Shown here: one piece after another, positions 6,640 through 51,949 of the stretch | How the letters are laid out: every line of letters begins with the position of its first letter | Numbering within the stretch: position 1 is the stretch's first letter | Sequence record: NC_102531.1 | Reading direction: 5' to 3' (one strand) | DNA: 64,000 nucleotides | DNA from: a phage | Program-made: the position numbers and the translations under genes | The notes under the pieces: model-generated | What the model saw: the letters and a program-made list of their open reading frames with translations, nothing else | Databases searched by the model: none | What the model was told of the DNA's origin: nothing

Positions 6640-8100
6640 ATGGATAGCAGAAGTTCAGAAATCATTGCCTCGCAGAAAGATGATGCCCTGAGAATGTTGC
6701 AGGCTGCACGTATGTATCTCCTTGAAAAGCTGCCGTTCTATGGCACACTACTGTCAGGGTTGCAGTTCGTAGAAAACCACACATGGTGCTCCACCATGGC
6801 AACCGACCATAAACGCATCTATTACAGTCCTGAGTTCATTATGGGATTGGCTGATGAACGCAAGGCTATTCTTAAGGCTTCTCTAACTGACGAGCAGTTT
6901 GAGATGGCTGAAGTTTTCTATTCCCCAAAATCTGTGAAAGAGGTGGCCTTCCTTCTGTCACATGAGGTGGGGCATATTATCTGTGATCACCTAGTCCGTG
7001 GTAAAAGCTTTGAGCCGGAACTGTTCAATATTGCTTGTGATCACGTTATCAACACAGGCCTTGTGGTTGACTTTAGCAAACCTCCTTGTGTTTTCTTCCC
7101 GAAGGGGAAAAGCACTACGTTCGTGAAAGGTAAGCCTTTTGGCTTCTTAGCCAGCTGCTACTGCGACATGAAGTTTCATGGATGGATTGCTGAGAACGTT
7201 TATGCAGTTCTTGATAAGCAAAGAGATCAGAATAACGGTAAAAGTAAGAACGGTAAAGGTGAGAACTCTCAAAGTGATAAGCGACAAACCGATGATCACA
7301 TGAGTGGGAACGGTGGCACCAATGATAATCTTGGAAAGGCTATGGGGTATGATCAGCCACAACCTGTAATCAGCCAATCTGATAAAGATCAGGCCATGCA
7401 GGACTCTGGTGATATGCTGGAGGCAGCAATGCAAGCGTCCGGAGGCCGTTGCCCTGAGGCGGTGCGTGAGTTTGTCAAGAACAGAGGTAAACCTGTAATC
7501 AACTATATAGACATCATTAAGCAACGCATGTTGTCTAAAAGAAAGGCCGAACTGACCTACAGAAAACCTGGTCGCCGATCTGGGTCTTTGACCAGCACAA
7601 TGCGAAAAGTTGGGGCTATAAACAAGAACCAGCACGTTATTGTTCCTGGTCGTAATCCGGAAAACACTATAGATATTGTGGTGGCTTTAGACGTTTCTGG
7701 CTCGATCTCTCAAAGAACTTTAAAGAAAATGTTCAATGAAATCACCGGATTGTGCAATCTGTATAAAGAGTTTAAGGTTACAATGTTCTGTTGGTCAACT
7801 GAGGTTGGAGAGGTTAAAGTATACACTCGCGGCAACATAGACGAGATGATCAACTATGAGGTCCACTCAACATGGGGCACAACAGCTGCTTGCGTGTTCG
7901 AGTATCTGGATGCCAACATACCTAATGCAAAAGATGTCATCGTCCTGACCGACCTATACTTTGAGCATAACTTTGAACAAAAGGTTGTTGACAACAAGTG
8001 GAAAAAGTACGATACTCTATGGGTCCTCACTGAGGGGTATAATAAAAATTATATCCCGAGCTTTGGGAAAACTGTGGAATTAATCGAGTACGCTAAGTAA
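6640..8100 (+). CDS. vWA-domain protein with N-terminal HExxH putative metallopeptidase domain (DUF2201-like)
   Basis: ORF track 6619..8100; ATG 6640 has SD GGAG 5 nt upstream. N-terminal PFYG...TMATDH...LSHEVGHIICDH...FNIACDHVIN; C-terminal MIDAS-like DVSGSIS. Long Asn/Gly/Ser/Asp-rich linker. Confidence 0.6.
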   Translation: MDSRSSEIIASQKDDALRMLQAARMYLLEKLPFYGTLLSGLQFVENHTWCSTMATDHKRIYYSPEFIMGLADERKAILKASLTDEQFEMAEVFYSPKSVKEVAFLLSHEVGHIICDHLVRGKSFEPELFNIACDHVINTGLVVDFSKPPCVFFPKGKSTTFVKGKPFGFLASCYCDMKFHGWIAENVYAVLDKQRDQNNGKSKNGKGENSQSDKRQTDDHMSGNGGTNDNLGKAMGYDQPQPVISQSDKDQAMQDSGDMLEAAMQASGGRCPEAVREFVKNRGKPVINYIDIIKQRMLSKRKAELTYRKPGRRSGSLTSTMRKVGAINKNQHVIVPGRNPENTIDIVVALDVSGSISQRTLKKMFNEITGLCNLYKEFKVTMFCWSTEVGEVKVYTRGNIDEMINYEVHSTWGTTAACVFEYLDANIPNAKDVIVLTDLYFEHNFEQKVVDNKWKKYDTLWVLTEGYNKNYIPSFGKTVELIEYAK

Positions 8101-8115
8101 GAGAGGAGGTTATTT

Positions 8116-8379
8116 ATGGCAACAGAGTTAAAATTTGCATCAAACCGTAAAACTAAGAAGTATCTGTCCTCAGTAGCTCCAGGCACTGTGGTGATGTTTG
8201 TTGATGAACTTGGGGATGTGAATACAGCACTTGTTGTAAAATCACATCCTGCAAACATATATGTTGGGGTATTTGACCTGTTCAGAAAGGTGTTTGTAGA
8301 ACTACCTCACAGTTTGGTTGTTACAGAAATGGATGCCTGCATAGAAATTCTTGGCGAAGTTATGGTGGAGGAACAATAA
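8116..8379 (+). CDS. small protein, paralog 1 of a tandem four-gene family
   Basis: 87 aa; SD GAGGAGG upstream; shares MAT..F.S..K.KK...GTVV...VK...FDL...LP...VTE.D..I.ILGE pattern with the next gene. Confidence 0.6.
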   Translation: MATELKFASNRKTKKYLSSVAPGTVVMFVDELGDVNTALVVKSHPANIYVGVFDLFRKVFVELPHSLVVTEMDACIEILGEVMVEEQ

Positions 8380-8642
8380 TGGCTACCAGCATTGTATTCA
8401 ATTCTAAGGTGAAGAACAAAAAGCGTGCAGACAGCTTTCCGTGTGGGACCGTGGTAAGTTGCGACGGAGACGGCATTCAAAACATAGTTATGATTGTCAA
8501 AACAGGAGAACATTGTGTGTGGGGGTTCGATTTAGAAAATAATGAGTTGTACGATCTGCCACCAAACATGAAAGTTACAGAGCTTGACACCAAAATTACC
8601 ATCCTTGGAGAGACAAGCTATTCAAAAGAAGGAGGAGAATAA
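8379..8642 (+). CDS. small protein, paralog 2 of tandem family
   Basis: 87 aa; TAATG stop/start overlap with paralog 1; SD GGAGGAA upstream. Confidence 0.6.
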   Translation: MATSIVFNSKVKNKKRADSFPCGTVVSCDGDGIQNIVMIVKTGEHCVWGFDLENNELYDLPPNMKVTELDTKITILGETSYSKEGGE

Positions 8643-8905
8643 TGACCACAAAAATCACTATCGCAGAACCGAAAGCTAACACTCAACCTATCGAAAAGTT
8701 TAAGTGCGGTGAGGTGGTAACATTCACACCAGATAATGAAGATGCTAAGATTTTCGCAATGGTCACAGCTGAGTGGATGTGTGACAACACCACACAGGTT
8801 CTGCGTTTTGACACCTATCTTACCGATGAAATCAGGAACGACAAGATTGTGACTGGTGTGGATACTGAGATTGTTTTCTACAAGAGCTTTTTAGAGGGTT
8901 TCTGA
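8642..8905 (+). CDS. small protein, paralog 3 of tandem family (more diverged)
   Basis: 87 aa; TAATG overlap; KFKCGEVVTF and RFDTYLTDEI...VTGVDTEIVF align to paralogs 1 and 2. Confidence 0.55.
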   Translation: MTTKITIAEPKANTQPIEKFKCGEVVTFTPDNEDAKIFAMVTAEWMCDNTTQVLRFDTYLTDEIRNDKIVTGVDTEIVFYKSFLEGF

Positions 8906-15600: not shown

Positions 15601-18277
15601 GAGGGTAACCTGTAGTTTGGTTAAACCACAAATTACAAGAGTAATCCCTCATATAGTCATAATCAGAGTATTTGTTTACATCTTCGTTCCAACACATGTT
15701 TAGGTTGGTACCGCCCATGCATACAATATATTCTGCGACATACTTATCACTTCTGGTAGGAATACCTATGAACCATCTGTTAACAGGCTCATCCCAAGCT
15801 GTGCGCTCATCTTTAACGCAGATAGCAATCCAGTCATGTGTTCCTGTTTTCTTGCACACATCTCGCTTCATACCATAGTAGAACTCTTTAGTATTCGGCT
15901 CAGGTGCATTTATCAGGTAACTCCATGCCTGATTTGCATAAGTTCCATTGGTGCGTGGATCATGATCAAAGGCATACATGATGATCCTTTCCCCACCAAG
16001 ATGTTCGCCAAGAGTAACTTTGACATTCACATCGCCGTAACCATTGCGAACAACCTCCATATTATCAATAGAGATACCTCTGGGCGTGTAGGCAATTTTC
16101 AGCGAGTTATCTTCACTAGTGCCGCCAAGTGTAATCCCTATGTTGTTTGTTGTCCCGTCGACATATCTTACTGTAGCTTCCCAGCGTATTCCGAAATATC
16201 CTGCATCATGGCTGACAATTTTCAGTGTACGAGCTCCCGGGTGAGGTTTTCCAGGATCAGGCCAAGGGTCTGGGTGTTCGTGAACAGTCAACGACGTTCC
16301 GTTCTGCTCATTAACCTGCAACATTTTACCACCCTTGCCATTAGGATTGAACTCCCACAAGGCTTGTGTTTTCACAATATTGTCATACGTGGCGCGTCTT
16401 TGATCGTAGATCTCTTGGGTCACATCATAAGTTACTGATCCAGCATCCATTCTGTGGAGTCTGACCATATACGATGTATCCCCTTCTACTGCAGGCTGGG
16501 TCCCATTCAGCCCAAAGTATACAGTATCGTTAACATGGAACTGCTTGTTTCTACCAACGGTATGCCACTTGCCGTTGGACGGATACGCAGGAACTATGGT
16601 GTTCCAGTTCAAAGTCCTTGTCGTGTGAGTTCTGCCTGTGCCATGCTTGTCATGATAGGTTATTTTTACAGAGTACAGGCCACGTCTGTTAACATTTCTG
16701 TTATACTGGGTAACAACAACTTCGTTGGCCCCGCCGTGGTTCCAGTTGGTGGAGAATTGGTAATTTGCATCTGTAACAACCGTACCTGCAGCATTCACCA
16801 GTTCAATCTTGTCAATGATGAACGTAGCTCCCTCTGGCTGAGGCTTCAATTTCATCTTGACCGTGTCACCAATGTAGATATTGCTAACACTGCTAACACC
16901 ATTAACGTCGAAAATATCATCAACGCCCCAACTGTCTACTGGGACATTTTTATACCAATTCTCAGGAACCTCTGTGAACCCCTGACTATTAAGTCTGCCG
17001 CCAAACAGGTTATTAGAGCCTGTAAAACTTCCCCTTGGGATACCTGACCACCAAAGTTTACCATTAACAACAGTAAAGGTCCCTAAGAAACCTTCTCTGT
17101 GGATGCCTTGGAAATAAACACTCTCTGTCCAGCTGACTGGCAGGCGTTGCTCAACATATTTAGCTGTAGCAAGAGCTTGATAGTGGATAAAATCGGCCCT
17201 AGGACTATTGTTTGCAGATTGTGCACCAATATCATTACATAAGTTGCGAGAGAACCCACGATACTGCTTAGTGCCATTATTGAAGAAAATGCCACTTGTG
17301 CCGTACCCACGAGCCATCATTACCTCATGGGTGTAGGTGATATTCAGTTCCCGCCATGTATCATCTCCCCAAATGTTTTGACCATAAAATACGTTAACAA
17401 GCTGCTGGTCATCGGGTCTATGCATCCTCTGTGTAGCAATTACTGCCCCGTTAGGACCACACATAAACCCTTTCCACTCCTCATCTGCAGGAATGCCCCT
17501 CAAATCGTTACGAGTAATCTGCACAGGAGGCCAAACAAGGTCGTTTCTACTGTTATTTCTCAGAAAGTCGTATCCAGCAATCCAGAAACCCCTAGGACCA
17601 CCGAAAATAACAGAGTTGTCATGCACCTCACAGTTGATGCTTGGGTTTTTCCAAGGGCCTGTTTCAGGATTTTCCGATGTCTCACCAATCTTTACAGGGG
17701 TTGCATGCTGATTTTTATCTACATGCAAAGATCCGTAGGTGTTGTTACCAGATCCATACAGGTTAAGTATGCCAGTACCTTCTGCCTCTGCAATAACCCA
17801 GACAGTGTTGTTAATACCGCCCATCACCTCAATAAGGCGTTCTGGGTGGGTGTCAAGGTGCAATCCTTTAACAATCTGCTCTGGGAGTGGTGTCCACTCG
17901 TTTACGCAAACATCATTACCGCCTGCCGCAGTGGATCCGATAAGACCTGCAGTGCAGCCGATGTAGAAAAACTGGTTATCAAAAGTCCGGATCACAAACG
18001 CGCGGTCTGCTCTCCACACATGATCAACATTCCAGGCTGTTTCGCTCGGATAGTTTATAGGGCTACGATCCCCAGTGCGGCACTCTCCGAACTTGTTATA
18101 GCCAGTAATATTAAGCTGACCATCATCAAAAAGTATAGCTAAGCTATTTACATAGGATACTGTGTTGCTTGTACCATCACTGTTGTCTATTGGGTATGAC
18201 AGAACAGCAAGTTCCTTAATTCCACCCCTCTTATCGAGGAAATGACGACCAAGTTTTAGCAAAGGGATTGGAAGCAT
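12641..18277 (-). CDS. giant tail fibre/adhesin (1878 aa) with C-terminal Ig-like domain
   Basis: Single 5.6 kb ORF at the distal end of the tail-fibre block; Ig-like segment IRKTWESSNTNIATVDATTGLVTFKATGNVTIKFVVTDDAG near the C-terminus; Gly/Asn/Thr-rich. Confidence 0.55.
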   Translation of the reverse strand: MLPIPLLKLGRHFLDKRGGIKELAVLSYPIDNSDGTSNTVSYVNSLAILFDDGQLNITGYNKFGECRTGDRSPINYPSETAWNVDHVWRADRAFVIRTFDNQFFYIGCTAGLIGSTAAGGNDVCVNEWTPLPEQIVKGLHLDTHPERLIEVMGGINNTVWVIAEAEGTGILNLYGSGNNTYGSLHVDKNQHATPVKIGETSENPETGPWKNPSINCEVHDNSVIFGGPRGFWIAGYDFLRNNSRNDLVWPPVQITRNDLRGIPADEEWKGFMCGPNGAVIATQRMHRPDDQQLVNVFYGQNIWGDDTWRELNITYTHEVMMARGYGTSGIFFNNGTKQYRGFSRNLCNDIGAQSANNSPRADFIHYQALATAKYVEQRLPVSWTESVYFQGIHREGFLGTFTVVNGKLWWSGIPRGSFTGSNNLFGGRLNSQGFTEVPENWYKNVPVDSWGVDDIFDVNGVSSVSNIYIGDTVKMKLKPQPEGATFIIDKIELVNAAGTVVTDANYQFSTNWNHGGANEVVVTQYNRNVNRRGLYSVKITYHDKHGTGRTHTTRTLNWNTIVPAYPSNGKWHTVGRNKQFHVNDTVYFGLNGTQPAVEGDTSYMVRLHRMDAGSVTYDVTQEIYDQRRATYDNIVKTQALWEFNPNGKGGKMLQVNEQNGTSLTVHEHPDPWPDPGKPHPGARTLKIVSHDAGYFGIRWEATVRYVDGTTNNIGITLGGTSEDNSLKIAYTPRGISIDNMEVVRNGYGDVNVKVTLGEHLGGERIIMYAFDHDPRTNGTYANQAWSYLINAPEPNTKEFYYGMKRDVCKKTGTHDWIAICVKDERTAWDEPVNRWFIGIPTRSDKYVAEYIVCMGGTNLNMCWNEDVNKYSDYDYMRDYSCNLWFNQTTGYPPRQARVNPAIFTDTQVFLTKQANEVQTFKNKYDPNKWFYNCYGAFFWGPGELPGGGSCFEAATYASDRFMGQVKKYKIIPGPETLGNAVDPYIIMTALRSNMDGTSISMQVPITNGYKRVVMIIKCDLIGKQVLAENGTSTHLFETALHYQFADSPFAGDKRISDTDTARCKKFMLGGGWWWYEFDLTDKFTDTSKVVTGLRLDLGENMHKSVCDGTYGDPTVYLKYVSFEHPEDVVYGPKLRLFGNWIAKDREGMGRKVRGFLVDAGTEDMLVNAVWPELPGTQWDNSAKSINWFNIHRAMWATNCYLWKELNDGAFGFTGGRRMAIICWTTLQRCYDHDYEIGGRAWKNIRDRIITNFADPNGGGAYGFDCSRLIHLNGSSAYKKEGYSGSMIEWGLVKDARVLMGQQLAAAIGPNAVQSVKPAWFDIPLWSPGTPGTAAINPTTGDLEISWEDLKQVGGWDKTGYQVQWWRADGSLAADEFVKDNFYTMSSAKAQQLFGQATPSTITMSMCCKDNRTGALGPRVAKVFSGIKWNLPVQSISWKQIGDNKLLVTPACQFNATLNVDPAVAANSAKASDFSVSNTAMADVRKIDTLNARITCKNTYGTFQIINNFTDADSKVVRTASQTLSLGTLAYAALITEQSATLQGGGVGKSITTPVWKPNEWVVFDLTVDFSSDNNWTWVRNCLSQLMGGPSSVSDSHDSTDPSVFQVGKTHPETGETLPDRKYALVCISYGKADVTFSGTHTYNGTYNFSRKYSLKAGNIIDEVGVLYNPGNGIGIVGGKLQMQEPSITPSNVSGIRKTWESSNTNIATVDATTGLVTFKATGNVTIKFVVTDDAGRKTSSTSFTVKQMAPQWRMWIGTATNGAYPNPAGTSGMKTFSTSKPMEYGSGPKVGQMVYFGAYIPEIIGLPRSQLQLLFGAGVDDLATFGYSDNIEAARSSGWVGFRMESGKEGRILGTASIGVMFPGDQQYRLEAYATFSR

Positions 18278-18298
18278 TGTGTTCTCCAGATAAGAAAA

Positions 18299-18316
18299 CC
18301 GCCCCGTCAGGAGCGG
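18299..18316 (-). terminator. hairpin plus U-tract between fibre genes
   Basis: Minus transcript ccgcucc-ugac-ggggcgg followed by uuuucuuaucu; located between the 18326 stop and the 18277 start. Confidence 0.4.
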
Positions 18317-18325
18317 TTAGATATA

Positions 18326-20071
18326 TTAACGTTGTGCAATTACTACGTCTACGATATCACCAACACCACAATACGTTAATTGCAGCAAGGTAACACTGTT
18401 AGCCTTGTTGTTAATAACAGGTGTTGCCGACAGGATAGCATACTTATCGTGCAAAGTCACGTTGTGACCTACAGCATCCTGAATTACATAGATAACCGCA
18501 GTGAATGGATAAGGTTTATCTTCCGCTGATGTCCCAGGCCACTGTCCTATTGTAAAATCCCCTTTCGCGTGAACAACATACATACTGGCCTGCCCGTTAG
18601 GTGTCCATGTCCCACTGGACGCGTCAACCTCCTCTAAATCAAAATCTACCTTTCCTGCGTGGAAAGTAGGGGCAGTAATGGTTTTACCCGCCTCAATTTC
18701 TTGAGAGGTGGTTATCTTGCCACTGGAGTTAATGCCATTACAGACAAAGTTGACATTAGAGAAGTCAGGCAACCACCCAGTCACCGTGCCGGATATTTCA
18801 AGGTTGTGAACAGAGGTGGTGCCAGTCCCTGCTGCGTTTAAACTGACATCTCCATTTACCTGCAAGTTGCGGGTAACGTTGCAGTTTTCAGAGTTTGCAG
18901 TTGTTGCAGTTAAAGTGGTTGTTGTCAGCTCGGTAATTACACCTTTGTTGGCTGTAAGCCCTTCTCCTTCAAAAGTTGCACGCTCATTGACTCTTAAGGT
19001 ATTCAGAGCTATGTTTTGGATAGAGGCCGTACCTCGAATAACTACAGACCCGCCAACCTCCAAATCGCCATTTATCAATGCATCACCAGTGCTTTCAATA
19101 TAGCTAGGGTAGATCATGGTGCCATCGACAGAGTATGTTATCCCTGTAACGGTACCTGTCACCTCAAGGTTCTTAACCCTGGTGGTCCCATCTACCTGCA
19201 ATGTCGGTTCGGTTGCTGCCTTCATGGCATTACCACGAATGTACACGTAGTCAAAAAAGTTATTACCCAGGCCATCAAAATGCACATCGTTATTATTAGC
19301 CACTGGTTTCCCAGAAGTTATAGTGTCAGCTATAACCCTGTGGGTGGACACTTCATGAGGTTGCAGCTCTGTACTTCTCCAGTCTGCATGCTTAGGATCG
19401 CTCCACGCAAAAGTAAGTGTAGAAGTATTTGCCGTGAGGATTAGATTCCTAAAGCGTGCAGTAGAATCTGCCCCATTAACAGGTCCATGTAAGGTAAGGG
19501 TGCCACCAACTATAGTGTTAGCGAGTTCTGTAAGACCTTTTACCACCAAAGACCCTACAGTAACTTTCATCCCCTCCATGGCTTTAAATATGCTATCAAC
19601 ATAGTCAACAACAAACTCTGTGTTTGCTATGGACTCTGACTTATCGTCCATTGGAGGTGTAGGTACTCGTGGGTCACCTTCGAACCTCGGGCTGTTAAGT
19701 TTTGCGTAGTATTTTGCCATTACTGCAGAGTCGGTGTATAATCTCCAGTTTGGAGATTGTGAAGGATCTGCTGGCATTCTAACCGGGTTAGATTTTGATG
19801 CTGCGGGAGCGTACCACCATTGAGGGCCTGTGTCCCCTTTAAACTCATACAGCTGGTTAAAAACTGTTGTGGATGCACCATACGCCCAAGGGATCGGTGG
19901 CGTTTTAAAATAAAGGTTGTCAAGCATGGCTTTTCGTACCGTAGGGATGGTGGTCCCATCCTCTACGACAACTTCATCCACAGCGTTACCGTTGACAACC
20001 AAGTGCAAACGTTCAGAATCAACAATTACTTGATCTACCGCCTGCTCAAAGCTTGTCATGTCTTGCGCCAT
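18326..20071 (-). CDS. tail fibre protein (581 aa)
   Basis: ORF track; Thr/Gly/Asn-rich beta-repeat composition (TGTVTGITYSVDG, NLEISGTVTG) typical of fibre shafts. Confidence 0.5.
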   Translation of the reverse strand: MAQDMTSFEQAVDQVIVDSERLHLVVNGNAVDEVVVEDGTTIPTVRKAMLDNLYFKTPPIPWAYGASTTVFNQLYEFKGDTGPQWWYAPAASKSNPVRMPADPSQSPNWRLYTDSAVMAKYYAKLNSPRFEGDPRVPTPPMDDKSESIANTEFVVDYVDSIFKAMEGMKVTVGSLVVKGLTELANTIVGGTLTLHGPVNGADSTARFRNLILTANTSTLTFAWSDPKHADWRSTELQPHEVSTHRVIADTITSGKPVANNNDVHFDGLGNNFFDYVYIRGNAMKAATEPTLQVDGTTRVKNLEVTGTVTGITYSVDGTMIYPSYIESTGDALINGDLEVGGSVVIRGTASIQNIALNTLRVNERATFEGEGLTANKGVITELTTTTLTATTANSENCNVTRNLQVNGDVSLNAAGTGTTSVHNLEISGTVTGWLPDFSNVNFVCNGINSSGKITTSQEIEAGKTITAPTFHAGKVDFDLEEVDASSGTWTPNGQASMYVVHAKGDFTIGQWPGTSAEDKPYPFTAVIYVIQDAVGHNVTLHDKYAILSATPVINNKANSVTLLQLTYCGVGDIVDVVIAQR

Positions 20072-20080
20072 GATTTCTCC

Positions 20081-20347
20081 TTAAGCTTTTTGCTCTTCGT
20101 TTTTAACGTGGTCAGGGTGCTGGCAACCCCACCGGAGCGAGATGAATTTGCTAATAAGCTGGGGGCAAGCTACTGAAGGCGCGTATATCCACGCATACCA
20201 TTCAGGAAGCGTATCATTATACCCCATATGAATAAACACCCCAGTCATCACCGCCATGCCTATGTTCGACCATAGCTTAGATTGGGATACTTTCGTAGGG
20301 TCATCAGATGCCGCAACCAGTCCCCATAAAAACTGAGTTAGTTTCAT
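20081..20347 (-). CDS. small hydrophobic protein (88 aa), possible fibre chaperone or membrane protein
   Basis: ORF track; hydrophobic stretches FLWGLVAA and IGMAVMTGVFIHM; immediately downstream of the 347-aa fibre gene. Confidence 0.4.
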   Translation of the reverse strand: MKLTQFLWGLVAASDDPTKVSQSKLWSNIGMAVMTGVFIHMGYNDTLPEWYAWIYAPSVACPQLISKFISLRWGCQHPDHVKNEEQKA

Positions 20348-20358
20348 TTACCCTCTTT

Positions 20359-21402
20359 TTAAGCATAAGATATAGTGATCCATTGACCATTTACAAGTTT
20401 TTGGATAGCACCTGTCCAGTAATCACCTTGATAAGGGTGTTTATAAGCGTAGTTACCAGAGCACATCACATGTCCAGGGTAGACTCTTGACTCTCTGTAG
20501 GTGGTTTTGAAACGGTTTGCTATCCTTACATCATCAACACCTCTGCTGGGCATAGGGATAGTAAGGTTACCACTACCGTCTGCGCTGTTACCATTTACCC
20601 TACGGACCACGTTTCTTCCACCAACTGTTGCATATTGGCCCCTGACGGTTTCATCGTTACAATCAACTCTTCCACCTATTTGAGCGCTTCCGCAGGATTG
20701 TTGTCCGTTAACAGTGGCTCTTGGTATCGTAACTGCATTGGCATTTGCAGAGGAACTTTTTGCGTCGTTGCATTCAAGATTTCCTTGGATAGCCAGTCTT
20801 GCACGGTTGGCAGTTATAGCATTGAGCTTCATAGCTGAAAACACAGGCTGCCCACCAGAAGGTTGAAATCTCCAACGGAACCCGTCTATTTGGTGAGAAG
20901 GATCATCAAGATCTGTGCCGTCAGCACCACCGATGTTGTCCATAATCCAGAAATCCATCATCGTCTTGTCTGAGGTTATGGTGGTATATATTGCCGCACT
21001 GTCTGTTGACGCAGATGCAAACTCGATTCTTTGGAGACCTAAAGTTTGAGTCTGAATCATTATGTCTCCAGACTTGTCAACATATAGATCGTCCATTTCT
21101 TCAGGTGAATATACATTGAGAACTTGACGTGCAGCAGCTTTGTCTGGAACGTCTGCTAGATTATTAGTGACCCTTAAGAATCTATTATCCCATCCTGGGA
21201 CAACATCTTCTGTTAAATGCTTTAACCACGCAGAAAGCATGTGAAGTTCAAAGTTAACAACTTCACATGCCACTCTTTGTGTCATATCCCAACCTTTCAA
21301 TCTCTCTTCTTTTTTTGGTTGAGACTTATTCAATTCTCCCGTATTTTCAAGCACAACATCCTGATTGGCCCAAATATCAAGAGGGATAACTGGTTTAGTC
21401 AT
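20359..21402 (-). CDS. tail fibre protein, paralog B (347 aa)
   Basis: Shares N-terminus (M.KP..PL.IWA..D.VL.NT) and C-terminus (QKLVNGQWIT.SYA) with 22417..23457; central region diverged. Confidence 0.6.
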   Translation of the reverse strand: MTKPVIPLDIWANQDVVLENTGELNKSQPKKEERLKGWDMTQRVACEVVNFELHMLSAWLKHLTEDVVPGWDNRFLRVTNNLADVPDKAAARQVLNVYSPEEMDDLYVDKSGDIMIQTQTLGLQRIEFASASTDSAAIYTTITSDKTMMDFWIMDNIGGADGTDLDDPSHQIDGFRWRFQPSGGQPVFSAMKLNAITANRARLAIQGNLECNDAKSSSANANAVTIPRATVNGQQSCGSAQIGGRVDCNDETVRGQYATVGGRNVVRRVNGNSADGSGNLTIPMPSRGVDDVRIANRFKTTYRESRVYPGHVMCSGNYAYKHPYQGDYWTGAIQKLVNGQWITISYA

Positions 21403-21491
21403 CGCGTTCTCCTGAGAAAATTCCTTAGGACTATTTTAACACTTTAGAGAACAAAATGCAAGAACGGAGTCCTTTCCGTTCTGACCTTTGT

Positions 21492-21806
21492 TTACCTTTT
21501 ACTATGCTCTACGAGCATGTGCAAAATCTTTTGTACATCAGCTCGGATACCGGAGACATCTGTCCTGACATCCTGCTTAAGGTCGTTAATATCGGCCTCT
21601 AGCTTGCTTAACCGGGTCTCGATAACGGAATCAAGTCTATCTTTTGTAACCATACTGTTTTTCACTAAGATGAGGTCTTTCTCCAGCTCATCTAACCTCT
21701 TGGAAATGCCTTTCCATTTGGTGTGCCACTGGTTGAAAGCCCATACACAGATCGGGACAACGGTACCCATGCAGATACCGTACAATGCCGCCAAATCCAA
21801 CTCCAC
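21492..21806 (-). CDS. small membrane-anchored coiled-coil protein (104 aa)
   Basis: N-terminal hydrophobic helix LAALYGICMGTVVPICVWAF followed by heptad-like sequence; function unknown. Confidence 0.4.
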   Translation of the reverse strand: MELDLAALYGICMGTVVPICVWAFNQWHTKWKGISKRLDELEKDLILVKNSMVTKDRLDSVIETRLSKLEADINDLKQDVRTDVSGIRADVQKILHMLVEHSKR

Positions 21807-21817
21807 AACACCTCCTC

Positions 21818-22402
21818 TTAGAGGGTAGGTCGCTCCGGGAAGAAAATGTCAGGGGCTTTAGATGTATCTATTTCAAGAAGTTTTACCCTGTACATTTTCA
21901 AATCTCTGATGTTACGTTTCTGGTCATCAGTAAGATCATATTCAAGGTCAATCATGTCTTGATAGGCACCAATTCTAGCAGTAGCCCAAGCAAGTTCTGT
22001 CTCTATGACACCCTCTGCCTGTTGAACAAAGAATTCATTGTCTGTGACAAATTCATCACCAACTAAACGCAAAGCGTCGTGGTGAAGCATAATGTTTTCT
22101 GGTACCTCTTCTTTTTTGGCGATAACCACACGAAGACCTGGAGCAGGCCATAAGGCATCAGGTTCTTCTGTAGATGTCTTAAGAATTCCCTTTTCGTCAA
22201 CAAGTAGGAAGATACAACCCGGATTTTCTTGTCGTAATGTTCGTGACTGCACATACCAATCGCCATCATCATTACGTAAAAAATACCCAGTGTATGCGGT
22301 GTAATCCTCAACCTCTTGAGGGGTCAGCTCTTTGGTTTCCTTGTTGGCGTGGTATTCGCCAGATCCCGGTTGGTAAAGTTTAAACTCTTGAAGTATTTTC
22401 AT
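21818..22402 (-). CDS. tail fibre assembly chaperone (Tfa-like)
   Basis: 194 aa directly downstream of fibre paralog A; C-terminus ...QKRNIRDLKMYRVKLLEIDTSKAPDIFFPERP resembles the conserved Tfa C-terminal motif. Confidence 0.5.
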   Translation of the reverse strand: MKILQEFKLYQPGSGEYHANKETKELTPQEVEDYTAYTGYFLRNDDGDWYVQSRTLRQENPGCIFLLVDEKGILKTSTEEPDALWPAPGLRVVIAKKEEVPENIMLHHDALRLVGDEFVTDNEFFVQQAEGVIETELAWATARIGAYQDMIDLEYDLTDDQKRNIRDLKMYRVKLLEIDTSKAPDIFFPERPTL

Positions 22403-22416
22403 GCTAGTCCCCCGAT

Positions 22417-23457
22417 CTATGCATAATTAACAGTGATCCATTGACCATTTACAAGTTTTTGTAAAGGTCCTGCCCAGTAAGTTGAACCACGCATCTCTTT
22501 TTTGTCACCGAAATGCCAGCCTGTGACAACGTAGCCGTTGCGGATTGGGGATTCAGAAACGCCGTCCACAAGTCTTGCACCGATTCTGATGTCTTGCACA
22601 CCTGTCTGCGGGATGGTGATCGTTACATCACCGTTACCGTTAGCCGTCACTCCGTTCACAGAGCGAACCACATTTCTGTTACCGACAACACAGTGCTGGC
22701 TTCTTACAACCATACTGTCACAACTTGCACCACCATTAACATATACTGACCCAGCCGTCAATTGACTAGCCACATTACAGTTGGTGAATGTTGCTGTATT
22801 GCTGATAGTAAGGTTATTACACCTCATGTTATCGACAACTTCAACATTGCCTACCACTTTCAACAGCGCACGGTTAGCCGTGATCGCGTTAAGGTACATC
22901 AAAGTGAACTCTGGATTAATATCCGGCTGAGTTGGCTGGAATCTCCAACGAAACGCATCTATTGTAGATGTGCCACCATCATCAAACGACCCAATATTAT
23001 CACTTAACCCAAAGTCGAGAGTTGTCTTATCTGGGCCAATAGTTGTCTCTATCCAAGCCTTATCTGTATCGGCAGCTTTAAAGTTGATACGTTGCAAACC
23101 CAATGGGCCTGTCATTGTATCACCTGTAACTTTTACATACCTGGCGTCTGCCTCTTCCTTAGTAATAATCCCAAGGTTTCTACGGGCAACAGGGATGTTC
23201 AAAAGATCACTCAAGTTATTATCACGTACCAGATAACGGCCTTCTTGAGCGGGGATCTGCTCGTCAGCAATGTATTTTGCCCAAGTTCCGAGCATATTGA
23301 AAATATAGTTAAGTTCTTCACATGAGGGCTTTTGACCAAGATCCCAACCTTTTCTCCACAAATCATCAATCGGGCGTAGCCTGTTCTGTCTGTGGGTGTT
23401 AGGCAGAACCTGATCCTCCTCTGCCCAAATCTCTAATGGAAAACTAGGTTTTGACAT
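22417..23457 (-). CDS. tail fibre protein, paralog A (346 aa)
   Basis: See paralog B; C-terminal ...QKLVNGQWITVNYA resembles P2 gpH-type fibre tips (from memory, not searched). Confidence 0.6.
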   Translation of the reverse strand: MSKPSFPLEIWAEEDQVLPNTHRQNRLRPIDDLWRKGWDLGQKPSCEELNYIFNMLGTWAKYIADEQIPAQEGRYLVRDNNLSDLLNIPVARRNLGIITKEEADARYVKVTGDTMTGPLGLQRINFKAADTDKAWIETTIGPDKTTLDFGLSDNIGSFDDGGTSTIDAFRWRFQPTQPDINPEFTLMYLNAITANRALLKVVGNVEVVDNMRCNNLTISNTATFTNCNVASQLTAGSVYVNGGASCDSMVVRSQHCVVGNRNVVRSVNGVTANGNGDVTITIPQTGVQDIRIGARLVDGVSESPIRNGYVVTGWHFGDKKEMRGSTYWAGPLQKLVNGQWITVNYA

Positions 23458-23469
23458 TTTATCTCCTGA

Positions 23470-25542
23470 TTATGAGAAGTCTGGCGGGACAACATCTTCT
23501 ACATACCCTTTCAGAGCAACCTGCCCCATATGAAGCACGGTAGAATCTCTAGCGGTAACAGTGATGCTGTCAGACATTACTTGCGGGTATGCCCACACAT
23601 ACTGTTTTACCTCAGGATATCTATACTCTATAGTTGCCATGTTTCCGCAAATACATCTCCATAAAAATTCTTGGTAATTCCTAGTTGGGTCGTAACCATA
23701 TACCGGAGCAAGCTCTTTACTAGGAACGAACCCTGCAAGGTATTGTATTTCAGACGGTTGCCAACCTAACTTAACGATAGGTATGTTTACAGACTCTTTT
23801 GCCTTTTCAATACCTCCCTGCATCACCCAATCGTAGCACTCGGTGCAGAAGAAATCAAGAGCACCTGCTTCCTTTTTATATTGGTCAGCAAGGTTCAGCT
23901 TTTGCGTAAGCTCAGTTTCCATAATGGTTGGGAAAAACAACAAAGCTGTCATCTGAGCTGATGCAGCGTGTGCCTTTATTGCCTTTGAAATAGCCGCAAT
24001 ACGAGCGCCAAGCTTACCACGACAAAATGCTACATACTTGTCGTAAACACCGCCAGTTTTAGGATCGTCAATAGTCCCAATATCTAATGCATACTCACCT
24101 GTCTCATCATAAAACGCCTGCTTTGTAGGGTAATCATAAATACAAGGTCTACGAGTATCGGTATTGTACCACCACCACGGTTCACCAACCTGCATAATCA
24201 CTGGCAGGTTGTTTCTCATAGCGGCTGATGCAAAATTCTTAAATACTGCAGTAAGGAAATTCATACCCTCTTCAATGGTTGGAGACAGGAGGTAGCTACA
24301 AGGTGTATACCCTGTTTTAGCGTAGTTATCGTTCCAGTCTCTTTGGGTCCATTCCAACGGGCAGGCATCGCTGAAAAGCTCAAAACTTACAGACTGCATA
24401 ACGTCGAAGTTATGTCGTTTGGCATTGTACATAAAATCATCATGCCATTTATAGGCTGCAGCGTTTAGCGCTCCTGTTCTGTTTATAGACCATTGGGTTC
24501 CTGACCATGTGTAGTCATAATAATGACTCATACCAACATAATGGTTTATGGTTCCGGTATAGCCCAGACGCTTGATATTGTTCAACACCCTTAAAGGAGA
24601 TACGTTCCACATATCGTCATATGCGGTGCAGATCCCAACGTCGTGCTCTCTCACCTGAATATTGTTAAGTTGCATCATTTTCCAGCCTGTGTCTGGCTGA
24701 AGCAGATCTAGGCGCAACTCACACTCTACGTTTTCCGTTCTCGGGTCTGTGCTGTTACTTACCCAGTCTTTAGGCATGAGCGGTATTAAAATCCTTCTCA
24801 CCTGCCGAGGATCAACACCCATCATGTTGTTGTTCTGGTCCATCCCAACGCAGTCCTCAAAATCAATATGAATTTCTGCAACATTCTTATCCTCTGAGAT
24901 GCTGACAGCATATTGAGCTAAAGGAACATAGATGATTGTGCCATCAACAAGGTCTACAGTCATAATCATCTTTTCAGGGGTGGAGAAGTTGCTGGCGTTG
25001 GTTATTGACATTCTGAACCAAAGCTTGGTGTTTCTCATCTCATAATGATCATCAAATCCAATACCGAAATGGTCATACTTGTCAACTGTTTCCCAAATGC
25101 ACCCAGCCATACCCCCATATGTTCTTGACACTAAACGGTTAATACAACAGTTGTTATCTGCAACAATACAGGTACTTTCAGTCTGCTGAGTAGTTGTAAC
25201 CCAATATCTTGGGTGAAACATTCTCTCCTCAACAGTATCCCAAGATATCCTGTCAAGATTCTCATCTGAAACTATTGTACATTTCGCCCTTTGTGTCCCG
25301 ATCATCACCCCTTGGGATTTTGATGAAAACTCCATAAAGAAGCTTCTTGGCAACCTGTTGGGTAATTTGTCAACAATTTCCACCGGGATCTCAATACTGG
25401 TTGCCCCAACTGGGATAGTTACATCGCCCTCAACATGATCATAATCCCTACCCGGAACGGCAGTATCCTGAACTGTGCGGTAATGAAACCGTGCAGCCAT
25501 TGTAGAGTAATCACGGTAAGGTTTAAAAACAGCTGTTGCCAT
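23470..25542 (-). CDS. tail/baseplate-associated protein (690 aa), possible carbohydrate-active domain
   Basis: Large ORF between baseplate genes and fibre genes; Trp-rich MQVGEPWWWYN segment; no firm family call. Confidence 0.45.
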   Translation of the reverse strand: MATAVFKPYRDYSTMAARFHYRTVQDTAVPGRDYDHVEGDVTIPVGATSIEIPVEIVDKLPNRLPRSFFMEFSSKSQGVMIGTQRAKCTIVSDENLDRISWDTVEERMFHPRYWVTTTQQTESTCIVADNNCCINRLVSRTYGGMAGCIWETVDKYDHFGIGFDDHYEMRNTKLWFRMSITNASNFSTPEKMIMTVDLVDGTIIYVPLAQYAVSISEDKNVAEIHIDFEDCVGMDQNNNMMGVDPRQVRRILIPLMPKDWVSNSTDPRTENVECELRLDLLQPDTGWKMMQLNNIQVREHDVGICTAYDDMWNVSPLRVLNNIKRLGYTGTINHYVGMSHYYDYTWSGTQWSINRTGALNAAAYKWHDDFMYNAKRHNFDVMQSVSFELFSDACPLEWTQRDWNDNYAKTGYTPCSYLLSPTIEEGMNFLTAVFKNFASAAMRNNLPVIMQVGEPWWWYNTDTRRPCIYDYPTKQAFYDETGEYALDIGTIDDPKTGGVYDKYVAFCRGKLGARIAAISKAIKAHAASAQMTALLFFPTIMETELTQKLNLADQYKKEAGALDFFCTECYDWVMQGGIEKAKESVNIPIVKLGWQPSEIQYLAGFVPSKELAPVYGYDPTRNYQEFLWRCICGNMATIEYRYPEVKQYVWAYPQVMSDSITVTARDSTVLHMGQVALKGYVEDVVPPDFS

Positions 25543-26228
25543 TAACCCTCCTGTCTAGTTGCGTTTACTGTAATACTTTCACAATAAATGGTTGTGGTGT
25601 CCCAATCAGGTCTTACGTCAGGAACATACAGCAAAGTAGCCAGCCCACCAACTCCGAACTGGTTTTCTTCCCATACTGATCCGAAGCCAAGAGCTGTGGA
25701 GTCCCCTTCAAAACCAAAAGCTTGCCCTTGCGATTCTGTAAGGCGCAAATGACAAGGCAATGGCAGCATATCTAAGATCTGATCGATAGACTGCAATATG
25801 TCAAAGCAAGTTTTTCTAATGTTTATGTCAAACCTGAAGTTGTCTCCTTTCCACGTATCGAAATTGTTTCTTCCGAACAATTGTCGCAAGGTGGAGATGA
25901 CATCTTCGCGAGTCCCTCCCCTTGATGCTGCGGCCTGCTGAATAATTAGTGTGGCACGAAAATCAGCATCTGAGAGTCCATTCCTAAGAATACCAAGTTG
26001 ATTACCAACTTCGTCAAGGTATCTTCCGCTGGCATTGTTAAGCAATCTTCCTTCAGCCAAACCTACCAGCATCTTATCAACATCCTCCAACCTTTTAAGG
26101 TACACGGTTAAGAATGTGACTAAATTAACCTTCTCAGCCAGAAAATCTCCAGGCAGGTAGTCAAGACCTCCCTGAACAAAATCTGGCAGAGTGTGGATGT
26201 GGTTAACATCCGACTTAATCTCTGCCAT
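25542..26228 (-). CDS. baseplate wedge protein (P2 gpI-like, tentative)
   Basis: 228 aa immediately downstream of the baseplate J-like gene, the J-I order seen in P2/Mu-type baseplates. Confidence 0.4.
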   Translation of the reverse strand: MAEIKSDVNHIHTLPDFVQGGLDYLPGDFLAEKVNLVTFLTVYLKRLEDVDKMLVGLAEGRLLNNASGRYLDEVGNQLGILRNGLSDADFRATLIIQQAAASRGGTREDVISTLRQLFGRNNFDTWKGDNFRFDINIRKTCFDILQSIDQILDMLPLPCHLRLTESQGQAFGFEGDSTALGFGSVWEENQFGVGGLATLLYVPDVRPDWDTTTIYCESITVNATRQEG

Positions 26229-26239
26229 ATCTCGCCGCC

Positions 26240-27730
26240 TTAAATAGTTTGTTGGAAAGTTATATTACTTTCGTCGAGGTCAAACACCTCGGTCATGTTC
26301 GCAACAATATCGTTTGTAGTGTAAGCTTCATCAGAAGCTCCTACTGGTTTAACTTGAATTACCAGTCTATTAAATCTGCCTATAGACACAGCAGCAGATG
26401 CAGCACCGACCAATTGGATATTGTACAACGTATCTGCAACATCCAGTCCGTTAACAACCTGCAAAAGAGCCTCTACAATGGCATCTTTTTCGGTTGTGGA
26501 AAGCGCAGCACCGGAGTAGGTAATTCTTACATCCAGGCGGTAGGTATTTGCCTTGGAATAATAAATTCTTTCAGTTTGACCGTCAGATGTAGTGACATCG
26601 TAGAAAATATTACCATAAGTCCTGTTCGTACAGGCTATAGTTTGGTAAAGTGCTTGGCAAATGTCCTCCGTTGCACCACCAAACACAACCACTTGGAACT
26701 TGTAAGGAGGTATACCTTTAGCATCAGTTTTATCGGTGTTGTTGGAGAACACTCTCACTTTCTCAACACCTTTTACCTCGCTTACAGCGCTAAGGATTGC
26801 AGGACGGGTAGCCTTCGATGTTAACTGTTTTGTGCTGGAAGCTCTTAAGCGATACTCTGAGTCTTTTTCAACATCCCTTCCCTCATTGAATCTTTCTCGG
26901 TTGGTAAGCTTAATAAATCCACTGGGGGTAGGCGACATTGTTGTCACGGTTTCTGCCTCTCTTGACAGCTCACCAGCCTCGTTAGCGATAACATCTAGGG
27001 TGATAGTTCTTTCCCCTACAATCGGGGATACTCTGAAATCTACCCTACTATTAAGTCCAACTTGATCAAGATTCGAATTGTACCCTATCCACAACGTTCC
27101 TGTCAACATATCGATTTGAATCAAATCGTCGTTCAACAGAGTTGTATTATCGACAATGAATTGCTTAATCTCTCCGTAAAAGCTTGGCAGATCAGAAGAG
27201 TCCAGAGCCTTATCTGTTAAAACCAGACTTTTTGTTTTGATACTTCCATCTGTCTGGTTGGTAATTTGAAAGTTGTATTTCCCAATTCTTAGATCTGGAG
27301 CGTTTATCCTGTGAGCAATAAGATTCCCTGCTACCTGCACGTCGTTGCTAAGAACAAAGTTCCCACTGTCTAATGTGTAAGTTTTGGAATCGTAAATCAT
27401 GTTGTACGGCACAGTTGTGTTGATCGTCAACTGGCAGGTACCTGATGATTTAGAACGGCCTCTTCGGTAAATACCCTGTCTTCCAAGAAGTTCATCTAGG
27501 TAAATACCTTCTGCCCCATACAGCGTCTGCGATGCGTATACAGATGCTGCCATAAGAATAAGTTGATACTCTCGCTCGTTGAAGATAGTGGTCAGCTTAT
27601 CTGCAACGGAGTTACTCTGTACGTTGAAGTTTTCGCCAAAAGCACGGATCAGGCTTTGCTTAGTTTCAACGATTAGGTCATTTAGGGTTGGTATAACGAA
27701 ACCAGCCTCTGTCAATCCATACTTAGCCAC
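26240..27730 (-). CDS. baseplate J-like protein
   Basis: 496 aa; N-terminal region ...SQTLYGAEGIYLDELLGRQGIYRRGRSKSSG fits the Baseplate_J pattern (A.G..LD...G..R). Confidence 0.5.
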   Translation of the reverse strand: MAKYGLTEAGFVIPTLNDLIVETKQSLIRAFGENFNVQSNSVADKLTTIFNEREYQLILMAASVYASQTLYGAEGIYLDELLGRQGIYRRGRSKSSGTCQLTINTTVPYNMIYDSKTYTLDSGNFVLSNDVQVAGNLIAHRINAPDLRIGKYNFQITNQTDGSIKTKSLVLTDKALDSSDLPSFYGEIKQFIVDNTTLLNDDLIQIDMLTGTLWIGYNSNLDQVGLNSRVDFRVSPIVGERTITLDVIANEAGELSREAETVTTMSPTPSGFIKLTNRERFNEGRDVEKDSEYRLRASSTKQLTSKATRPAILSAVSEVKGVEKVRVFSNNTDKTDAKGIPPYKFQVVVFGGATEDICQALYQTIACTNRTYGNIFYDVTTSDGQTERIYYSKANTYRLDVRITYSGAALSTTEKDAIVEALLQVVNGLDVADTLYNIQLVGAASAAVSIGRFNRLVIQVKPVGASDEAYTTNDIVANMTEVFDLDESNITFQQTI

Positions 27731-27810
27731 GTCACTCCTCCGGTATGAAAATCTCTACAAGGTATTTTACCAAATTTTGTAACAATAGTCAATCTGAGCA
27801 TAAAAATAAA

Positions 27811-33242: not shown

Positions 33243-33315
33243 TGTGCCTCCAGGTTAAACAATCATGATAGCTATTTTACCAGATTTTGAGTTAATACGC
33301 AATACAAACAAAAAG

Positions 33316-48350: not shown

Positions 48351-48474
48351 TTTATAGCATCCTTATTAGTCATGTTGTGCACCATATTTGTGTATTTTAC
48401 CATGATTATGGTGCATTGTCAATTTAACCTTTCAAGCAATTCAAGAACGTGTGTCAAAACCATAAAAGCAAAAA

Positions 48475-51908: not shown

Positions 51909-51949
51909 TAATGTATTTTACCACAAAGATACATCAAAAGCAACAATTT

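Follow-up and report, generated by a model that had tools for sequence, protein, structure and literature searches.

The short tail fibre locus of rV5-like phages, recovered here at 20359-23457 of a window of phage DNA (NC_102531.1; the whole stretch analysed, 64,000 nucleotides), is best explained, at a probability we put at roughly 0.6, as an ancestral fibre gene (paralog A) accompanied by a fibre-only duplicate (paralog B), the products of which would both be late virion fibres, served by one Tfa chaperone and binding the LPS core. The gene pair, a feature of rV5-like E. coli phages, is real, under selection and already known; it is not new. Nucleotide identity of the window to about 110 Vequintavirus genomes is 98-99%, and its source is an rV5-like coliphage (Vequintavirus). 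Gene order and gene sizes match those of rV5: the order gp33 - gp32 - gp31 - gp30 - gp29 is the short-tail-fibre locus, and both paralogs occur at full length in about 115 phage records. Kropinski et al. described the rV5 pair gp30/gp33 with gp32 in 2013, giving 42.3% identity, and proposed at that time the idea of two LPS chemotypes (PMC3606486); Maffei et al. (2021; PMC8594841, S5D Fig) reported for Vequintavirus [quoted passage not shown], together with the homology to Mu GpS/GpU and the single copy in phi92-like phages (PMC8594841). The window genes are the same genes as rV5 gp30, gp33 and gp32, at 99% protein identity and without biological difference, and because the locus has been in the literature since 2013 it offers no new biology as such. 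Four features were not found in either publication (PMC3606486, PMC8594841): (i) the position of B in place of a gene for a 157-residue membrane protein, (ii) the hairpin and late-promoter motif belonging to B and kept across lineages, for which the rV5 paper gives promoter P030 only, (iii) a segment-by-segment map of A/B divergence and (iv) the covariation of the fibre tip with Tfa. The additions made here are modest, namely a swappable unit formed by the Tfa gene and the final ~60 fibre residues, the status of B as a fibre-only duplicate in place of a membrane-protein gene, and its own late signals.

Paralog A (346 aa; 22417..23457, minus strand; rV5 gp33, 343/346 residues identical) combines a Vequintavirinae N-terminal baseplate anchor with a Mu GpS-like C-terminal tip. 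Paralog B (347 aa; 20359..21402, minus strand; rV5 gp30, 343/347 identical) is a duplicate specific to its lineage, has diverged in the anchor and in the tip loop, and lacks a chaperone gene of its own. Both are covered end to end by PHROG 4465, "tail fiber protein" (A, E 1.7e-171, residues 1-346; B, E 3.7e-165, residues 1-347; profile positions 1-342 of 342 in each case), and BLASTP aligns them with 154/356 positions identical (43%, E 8e-95). By these comparisons they qualify as true paralogs and as the same kind of fibre; the initial annotation had likewise proposed tail fibre paralogs. Searches for the family in the protein database returned 8 matches with a single-sequence query and 77 with a profile. 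In PDB sequence searches with A, the phiTE short tail fibre (9cuy_c) aligns with residues 1-108 (E 1.6e-19) and Mu fibre protein S (5yvq) with residues 286-343 (E 1.8e-6); residues 1-83 of B match 9cuy_c more weakly (E 2e-8), and Mu S was not matched by B at E <= 1. For the AF2 models of both proteins, 5yvq_A is the one PDB entry with a significant fold match (A, E 1.2e-6; B, E 6.3e-8; probability 1.00 for each), although, because the models are monomers of low to moderate confidence, with pLDDT of 68 and 61, respectively, these matches to the Mu fibre are supportive only. B lacks no part of the fibre between anchor and tip, and it retains the 27 alignment columns that do not vary among 13 members of the family.

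Purifying selection on both genes is strong: across 10-12 genomes A has a dN/dS of 0.021 and B one of 0.067, and neither reading frame contains an internal stop. Selection and intact reading frames together rule out a decaying pseudogene for both copies, which was part of the outcome that the initial annotation had named as fatal to its proposal.

The distribution of divergence along the two proteins is not the one first described, of conserved termini and divergent centres. Residues 119-204 are the most similar part (60%, with 50-63% across the centre in a sliding-window profile), the anchor (residues 1-70) is 40% identical, and two troughs occur, one at about residues 205-250 (18%) and the other in the tip loop at residues 291-334 (33%). 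The sole conserved "terminus" comprises the last 12 residues (A, PLQKLVNGQWITVNYA; B, AIQKLVNGQWITISYA), of which 10/12 are identical (83%); the shared C-terminal tail motif reported earlier is present in both. At the nucleotide level, a 72-nt direct repeat (family D1, unstranded; 20351..20422 and its partner at 22409-22480, 81% identical) covers the 3' ends of B and A, and BLASTN of A against B retrieves only a 63-nt stretch at 84%, within this repeat, and one stretch of 30 nt. The similar centres and last 12 residues speak for the proposal that A and B co-assemble into heterotrimeric fibres, and one chaperone could nucleate mixed trimers; yet the A-B alignment contains four indel sites, the trough at residues 205-250 lies in the distal part of the fibre, and the two genes belong to different transcription units (see below), so that we consider co-assembly highly improbable. 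We know of no heterotrimeric fibre of the Mu S kind, which also counts against it.

Directly downstream of A lies the gene for the tail fibre assembly chaperone Tfa (194 aa; 21818..22402, minus strand; rV5 gp32), the Tfa-like product noted earlier and the sole chaperone in the locus (Pfam Caudo_TAP, E 8.4e-12; PHROG 136, E 2.1e-36; dN/dS 0.055); Mu GpU was not matched by it in the PDB sequence search. What follows B is an 88-residue membrane protein without similarity to Tfa in Pfam or PHROG. Only the fibre gene is doubled and the chaperone is single, so the duplicated cassette first envisaged is not what is present. The comparison with related phages for cassette swapping, suggested at the same time, revealed that tip and Tfa are exchanged together: between Av-05 and 18-1-2 the fibre body is 97% identical, the tip 45% and Tfa 33-35%. 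In relatives, the Tfa gene moves as one module with the final ~60 residues of the fibre.

The tips of A and B also evolve in concert, having the same extreme C-terminus within each genome and, in lineage L020, the whole tip in common. There A and B are 44% identical in the body, 87% in the tip and 95% over residues 291-334. The two proteins end in NYA/SYA in the window and in lineage L021 and in QTL/QTL in L020, which has a different Tfa; between the window and L021, the B tips share 93% identity. We infer from this covariation, seen in three lineages only, that B depends on the single Tfa, which would trimerise both A and B through their shared C-terminal end. The chaperone of Mu stays on its fibre tip. 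A more specific version, to which we give limited credence, holds that the single Tfa recognises the ~12 shared C-terminal residues of both fibres and that B docks at a second site, giving two rings or branches of LPS-core-binding fibres as against one in phi92. Because one Tfa would then read the shared C-terminal ~12 residues, tips and chaperone would be forced to evolve in concert.

Between the chaperone gene and B lies the gene for a protein of 104 aa that has one transmembrane helix, at its N-terminus, and a coiled coil (rV5 gp31; 21492..21806, minus strand; PHROG 5345, E 1.5e-48; dN/dS 0.031), and directly after B that of the 88-aa membrane protein (rV5 gp29; 20081..20347, minus strand; PHROG 1322, E 2.7e-32; dN/dS 0.010), a conserved neighbour. 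Homologues of gp31, also of 104 aa, occur in the single-copy phages Av-05, PVP-SE1, GAP31, 4MG, KB57 and 18-1-2, in which the order is short tail fibre - Tfa - 104 aa - 157 aa (four transmembrane segments) - ~88 aa - fibre; homologues of gp29, of 87-91 aa, stand at the same position in phages that have no B. Since the 88-aa gene is in place in these single-copy phages, it is an old neighbour, and synteny rules it out as an accessory of B. Of the claim that a small hydrophobic gene accompanies B, the presence of such a gene holds and the accessory role falls. In synteny with the six phages, B occupies the exact slot of the 157-aa, four-transmembrane gene and has replaced it. The 157-aa protein is encoded in 108 records, of which the 40 listed include no rV5-like phage, and the counts by organism are too small to accommodate the ~115 rV5-like genomes. 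The 104-, 157- and 88-aa membrane proteins gave no informative match in Pfam, NCBIfam or PHROGs, and the holin and spanin of the Rosemountvirus "birk", encoded after a fibre whose tip is related, have no similarity to them. The sole hint is a weak match of the 113-aa counterpart in phi92-like phages to a PHROG Rz-like spanin family (E 5e-4).

Comparison with the single-copy fibres gives an anchor identity of 63% for A versus 47% for B. The centres of A and B are 60% identical to each other versus 43-45% to the single-copy fibres, and the A/B body identity is 42-46% in all three two-copy lineages. A is the ancestral copy, being nearer to the single fibre of the sister genera, carrying the Mu S-like tip and being followed by the sole Tfa. 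B, in turn, arose by duplication of no more than the fibre gene, and is older than the split of the three sampled two-copy lineages.

The gap of 89 bp between the 104-aa gene and B (21403-21491) contains a terminator-like hairpin and a late-promoter motif; this gap with its two elements, and the 104-aa gene at 21492-21806, had been left out of the initial annotation. The hairpin (21461..21482, minus strand; identified by a terminator scan) would close the upstream unit and is followed by the invariant TTGCATTTT; compensatory changes keep its stem in the divergent lineage L021, and its tail is invariant in five lineages. The late-promoter motif TGTTAAAATA (21432..21441, minus strand), ~30 nt upstream of B, corresponds to the putative late promoter P030 of rV5, which reads identically at 21418-21454 on the minus strand (Kropinski Table S4, PMC3606486), and is invariant in the five-lineage alignment. 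The window contains five occurrences of TGKTAAAATA, all on the minus strand, versus 0.4 expected. A second terminator-like hairpin from the same scan, at 18297-18318, follows the gene for a 581-aa fibre protein (rV5 gp28; 18326..20071, minus strand; PHROG 4549, E 1.6e-251), with which the unit that starts at B ends. B thus has a hairpin and late-promoter motif of its own in front of it and heads a separate unit with gp29 and gp28. A shares a transcription unit with the gene upstream of it, encoding a 690-aa fibre protein with an N4 gp65-like TIM-barrel (rV5 gp34; 23470..25542, minus strand; Pfam TIM-barrel_NCTSP, E 4.1e-80), a protein detected in rV5 virions by mass spectrometry (PMC3606486). 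Both short fibres would be produced late in infection.

Among known systems, phage Mu GpS/GpU (PDB 5yvq, 9ki1) resembles the locus in the distal fold of both paralogs, with a sequence match for the tip of A only, and in a Caudo_TAP chaperone gene placed directly downstream of a fibre gene, here that of A. It differs in that inversion of the G segment switches Mu between S/U and S'/U', whereas the window fibres are fixed on one strand with late signals upstream of each; in that one chaperone stands here for two fibres; and in the N-terminal anchor, here of the Vequintavirinae type and not that of Mu. The inverted repeats found are three in number, short and imperfect, none flanking a gene set, and the neighbouring genes gave no invertase match. 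A Mu/P1-type invertible host-range segment is ruled out by these repeats, the single strand and the lack of an invertase, in agreement with the earlier reading. Also related are phi92 gp147 and the phiTE short tail fibre, which have a homologous N-terminal anchor, are encoded beside the wedge genes, and point downward on the wedge protein: gp147, a single-copy homologue, is fibre III in a published low-resolution fit, and residues 3-92 of the phiTE fibre are modelled on wedge protein 1 (PDB 9cuy). The phi92-like tip is 57% identical to that of A and the phi92-like fibre body only 22%. These phages differ in having a single copy, that of phiTE being 554 aa long with a coiled coil and Ig-like domains. 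With T4 gp12, from which the name "short tail fibre" derives, the locus shares the proposed role, with LPS core as terminal receptor. T4 differs in its chaperone, gp57A, and in fibres folded under the baseplate, as against the pre-deployed, downward fibres of the phi92/phiTE homologues. Similarity of the rV5 fibre to gp12 (1PDI) by HHpred was reported by Kropinski (PMC3606486); in our searches neither the sequence matches of A and B in the PDB at E <= 1 nor the fold matches listed included T4 gp12.

The reading of A and B as two virion fibres must be weighed against published virion data. Cryo-EM of two Vequintavirus phages, Bas49 and Bas54, shows a single Mu-like short-fibre density, and its resolution of 7-9.5 A is too low to assign this to A or B. 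The rV5 mass-spectrometry Table S5 comprises 19 proteins (PMC3606486); gp30, gp32 and gp33 are not among the entries consulted, and the count leaves no room for them in the remainder. Table S3 of that paper marks "MS evidence" for gp34 and not for gp32 or gp33, unlike its text, where gp30, gp32 and gp33 are stated as detected (PMC3606486). Because text and tables disagree, we do not take the rV5 proteomics as proof of presence in the virion. One could suppose that only one paralog is the virion short fibre and that the other is, for example, a branch on the gp28 or gp34 fibre or a non-structural late protein. Such a division of roles would account for the one short-fibre density near the baseplate, for the absence of both paralogs from the mass-spectrometry entries consulted, for the place of B as first gene of a separate unit with gp29 and the gp28 fibre, and for the drift of its anchor from the family norm. 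B is nonetheless complete from anchor to tip with all 27 invariant columns, its model matches the Mu fibre, and mass-spectrometry data of only 19 proteins are shallow; we consider this division improbable.

If A and B are both on the virion, their target would be the LPS core, the terminal receptor of these phages. These phages require waaC and waaG (PMC8594841), and the phiWec phages require waaG, waaF and waaY. The core epitopes or core types that A and B bind are probably not the same, a difference that would broaden the host range, and B would dock at a site other than that of A, as is suggested by the divergence of its anchor. The two alternative receptor specificities put forward by the initial annotation are plausible. 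Allelic variation across the genus is almost nil, and the tips are nearly the same in L020, observations that speak against distinct specificities. Maffei et al. stressed the invariance of both paralogs throughout the genus and considered that the two may serve a single, conserved receptor in the LPS core (PMC8594841). A and B might share one wedge site and one LPS-core receptor; the duplication would then add dosage, robustness or a random A/B mix on the particle, and no second specificity. The one short-fibre density per wedge region in the two phages imaged, the homology of both anchors to that of phiTE, the invariance between genomes that a conserved receptor predicts (PMC8594841) and the 87% identical tips of L020 are all in keeping with such redundancy. 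In the lineage of the window, however, the tip loop is only 33% and the anchor only 40% identical between the copies, and their divergence is kept under strong purifying selection in two separate lineages (that of the window and L021), where a copy that served dosage alone should have remained alike or been lost. We regard a shared site and receptor as a serious but minority possibility, and favour two late virion fibres with distinct attachments.

Should it prove true, "one chaperone, two fibres, two docking sites" would be an arrangement without earlier description. Few coliphages of broad host range are isolated as often as the rV5-like phages, which are considered for therapy and as agents to control E. 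coli O157; engineering of their host range depends on which short fibre touches which part of the LPS core, and on whether one chaperone serves both.

Every gene of the fibre locus lies on the minus strand, in keeping with the initial annotation's view that no inversion is involved, and positions 18000-26500 are 98-99% identical in nucleotide sequence to ~110 genomes of rV5-like coliphages (genus Vequintavirus), including CarlMeissner/Bas48 and rV5_ev146. Under rV5 gene names and in order of transcription, the locus comprises gp36, baseplate J-like (27730-26240); gp35 (26228-25542); gp34, a 690-residue fibre with an N4 gp65-like TIM barrel (25542-23470); gp33, the 346-residue short tail fibre here called A (23457-22417; 343/346 residues identical to rV5 gp33); gp32, the tail fibre assembly chaperone Tfa (22402-21818); and gp31, 104 residues with one transmembrane helix and a coiled coil (21806-21492). 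Beyond an 89-bp gap follow gp30, the 347-residue short tail fibre B (21402-20359; 343/347 identical to rV5 gp30), gp29, of 88 residues (20347-20081), gp28, a 581-residue fibre (20071-18326), and gp27 (1878 residues). The Tfa-like chaperone first noticed after A matches Caudo_TAP (E 8.4e-12), and the small protein after B, described as hydrophobic, is a membrane protein of PHROG 1322. Seventeen records named "Campylobacter phage" (e.g. MG065635.1, MG065661.1, MG065682.1) are also ~98% identical to this interval, with Campylobacter jejuni in the host field of 15; they look like mislabelled records or coliphage carry-over in those preparations.

A and B are paralogs, as originally proposed: they share 43% identity over their full length (E 8e-95), and PHROG 4465 ("tail fiber protein") matches both end to end. 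Their portrayal as proteins with conserved termini and divergent centres did not survive alignment. By segments of A, identity to B is 40% in the anchor (residues 1-70), 35% at 71-118, 60% at 119-204, 18% at 205-250, 55% at 251-290, 33% at 291-334 and 83% at 335-346. Conservation is therefore highest in the centre, the conserved end consists of the last dozen residues only, and divergence is located in the anchor, one distal-shaft stretch and the tip loop. In DNA, the two genes resemble each other over one long stretch only, a direct repeat of 72 nt across both 3' ends (81% identical).

Both proteins show homology to the phiTE short tail fibre over their first ~100 residues (PDB 9cuy; E 1.6e-19 for A, 2e-8 for B); residues 3-92 of the phiTE fibre make up a globular joint that sits on wedge protein 1 (PMC11972413). 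In sequence, the last 60 residues of A give a match to Mu fibre protein S (5yvq; E 1.8e-6); the same search gave no such match for those of B. AlphaFold2 monomer models, built from an alignment of 34 sequences, reach only moderate confidence (mean pLDDT 67.9 for A, 60.8 for B), and the one PDB structure that either model matches significantly in fold is 5yvq_A, the Mu fibre-chaperone complex (probability 1.00; E 1.2e-6 for A, 6.3e-8 for B). Taken together, the anchor homology and the tip matches therefore describe fibres that combine a Vequintavirinae anchor with a distal part like that of Mu. This fibre type agrees with published work in which phi92 gp147 was fitted as downward fibre III (PMC13450770), and with the "TC1" short fibre of the Vequintavirus phages Bas49 and Bas54, whose cryo-EM resolved three fibres near the baseplate, one of them short, with short-fibre density at 7.3-9.5 A, a resolution too low to tell the paralogs apart (PMC12143355).

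Six relatives with a single short tail fibre gene, Av-05 and 18-1-2 (Avunavirus), PVP-SE1, GAP31 and 4MG (Seunavirus) and KB57 (Mydovirus), have a common gene order: fibre, Tfa, 104 residues, 157 residues, ~88 residues, and a fibre of ~585 residues. The 157-residue protein has four transmembrane helices (PHROG 7451); in Vequintavirus its gene is missing and B occupies that position. Searched by tblastn, this protein matched 108 phage records, with no rV5-like phage among the 40 matches listed; the organism counts for all 108 (16 "Escherichia", no "Campylobacter") leave no room for ~115 rV5-like genomes. Since the 104- and 88-residue genes are present in the single-copy order, they are old neighbours of the chaperone and not accessories of B, as the small hydrophobic gene had been taken to be; nor was a cassette duplicated, the fibre gene alone having been copied without its chaperone.

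This set of small membrane-protein genes (104 residues, one helix and coiled coil; 157 residues, four helices; ~88 residues) sits inside the Vequintavirinae tail-fibre module between Tfa and the next fibre gene (21492-21806 and 20081-20347 here; 7686-8755 in the PVP-SE1 locus, L008; likewise in comparison loci L007 and L010-L013). A 113-residue phi92-like counterpart weakly matches an Rz-like spanin PHROG (E 5e-4). In L020 (Logan SRR24653873), which is a divergent lineage with two copies, the 88-residue protein has a homologue of 118 residues (7076-7432), with an extra acidic, Tyr/Ser/Asp-rich C-terminal tail (…RYSGTGYSRYSDDRYSDNKYSDF…). In KB57 (KT934943; locus L011, 6001-7046) the annotated short-fibre start, at 6117, is internal and the first ~35 anchor residues lie in another frame, either through a frameshift in the record or through real truncation.

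Two further two-copy lineages, L021 and L020, were taken from public assemblies; their B-slot proteins are 78% and 48% identical, respectively, to B. Fibre bodies cluster by slot (74-86% mutual identity in the A-slot, 52-75% in the B-slot), and A and B bodies are 42-46% identical in each of the three lineages, which dates the duplication to before they split. A's anchor is 63% identical to those of single-copy fibres vs 47% for B's, and the A and B centres are 60% identical to each other vs 43-45% to single-copy fibres, a pattern that fits a duplication in this lineage, after which B's anchor and tip changed. Across 10-13 Vequintavirus loci with ample synonymous divergence (mean dS ~0.17), Nei-Gojobori dN/dS is 0.021 for A, 0.067 for B, 0.055 for Tfa, 0.031 for gp31 and 0.010 for gp29, with no internal stops. 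Both fibre genes are full-length in ~115 phage records. Decay of one paralog into a pseudogene, the initial annotation's alternative, is thus ruled out at the sequence level by low dN/dS and intact frames.

In these comparisons the last ~60 fibre residues behave as a mobile module travelling with the chaperone. Between Av-05 and 18-1-2, fibre bodies are 97% identical, tips 45% and Tfa proteins 33-35%; a phi92-like fibre compared with those of A, PVP-SE1 and Av-05 gives 22% in the body and 57-69% in the tip. Fibre tips of Rosemountvirus, small myophages that also carry homologous Tfa genes, are 58% identical to A's. One of them, the 52-kb Salmonella phage birk (locus L025, 1352-3745), has this identity over the last ~58 residues, and downstream of its fibre gene come two Tfa genes and a holin-endolysin-spanin cassette, in that order. 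One and the same tip-plus-Tfa module thus circulates among myophage groups that are unrelated. Within genomes, the paralogs' ends evolve in concert: A and B end in VNYA/ISYA here and in L021, and in IQTL/VQTL in L020, where they are 87% identical in the tip, 95% over residues 291-334 and 44% in the bodies, and where Tfa is only 44-52% identical to that of the window. The common L020 tip is 75% identical in nucleotides between paralogs, so conversion was not recent. From the three lineages we infer that one Tfa may serve both fibres through their common C-terminal end.

The 104- and 157-residue genes overlap in single-copy relatives; here the 89-bp gap upstream of B holds a hairpin (21482-21461, minus strand), an invariant TTGCATTTT and a late-promoter motif, TGTTAAAATA (21441-21432, minus strand), and is identical to the putative rV5 late promoter P030. 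TGKTAAAATA has five occurrences in the window vs 0.4 expected, every one of them on the gene strand, with one copy upstream of gp36. The four further exact copies of TGGTAAAATA (27763-27772, 33273-33282, 48393-48402, 51914-51923) are all on the minus strand; as putative promoters on the structural-gene strand, the five mark the window's predicted late transcription units. In a divergent lineage, changes in the hairpin stem compensate for one another so that it still pairs, and the promoter motif does not vary across five lineages; B thus heads a predicted late unit of its own, gp30-gp29-gp28, ending at a hairpin at 18318-18297, and the predicted unit before it has A as its fourth gene.

Both rV5 gp30 (347 aa) and gp33 were described by Kropinski et al. 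2013 (PMC3606486). The main text of that paper places gp30, gp32 and gp33 among proteins found in total phage proteomics, at odds with its tables: the "MS evidence" mark in Table S3 is on gp34, not on gp32 or gp33, and in the mass-spectrometry Table S5 (19 proteins) none of the three appears in parts 1, 3 or 4, part 2 having by count no room for them. Maffei et al. described the Vequintavirus paralogs as homologues of the one locus in phi92-like phages and, ultimately, of Mu GpS/GpU, and reported that their alleles do not vary considerably; following the LL12 study (PMC7229145), they assigned the terminal receptor to the first outer-core glucose of the LPS core. According to a later study, Vequintavirus phages require nfrA/nfrB, waaG, waaF and waaY (PMC12548472). 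The paired short tail fibre locus is real, if ordinary, and has been described before, and the idea that its paralogs have two specificities was in print in 2013. Against that idea, neither paralog varies across the genus, and the two have a common tip in L020; in its favour, the tip loop and the anchor have diverged and purifying selection has preserved this divergence in two lineages, and it is plausible that A and B would have two separate specificities.
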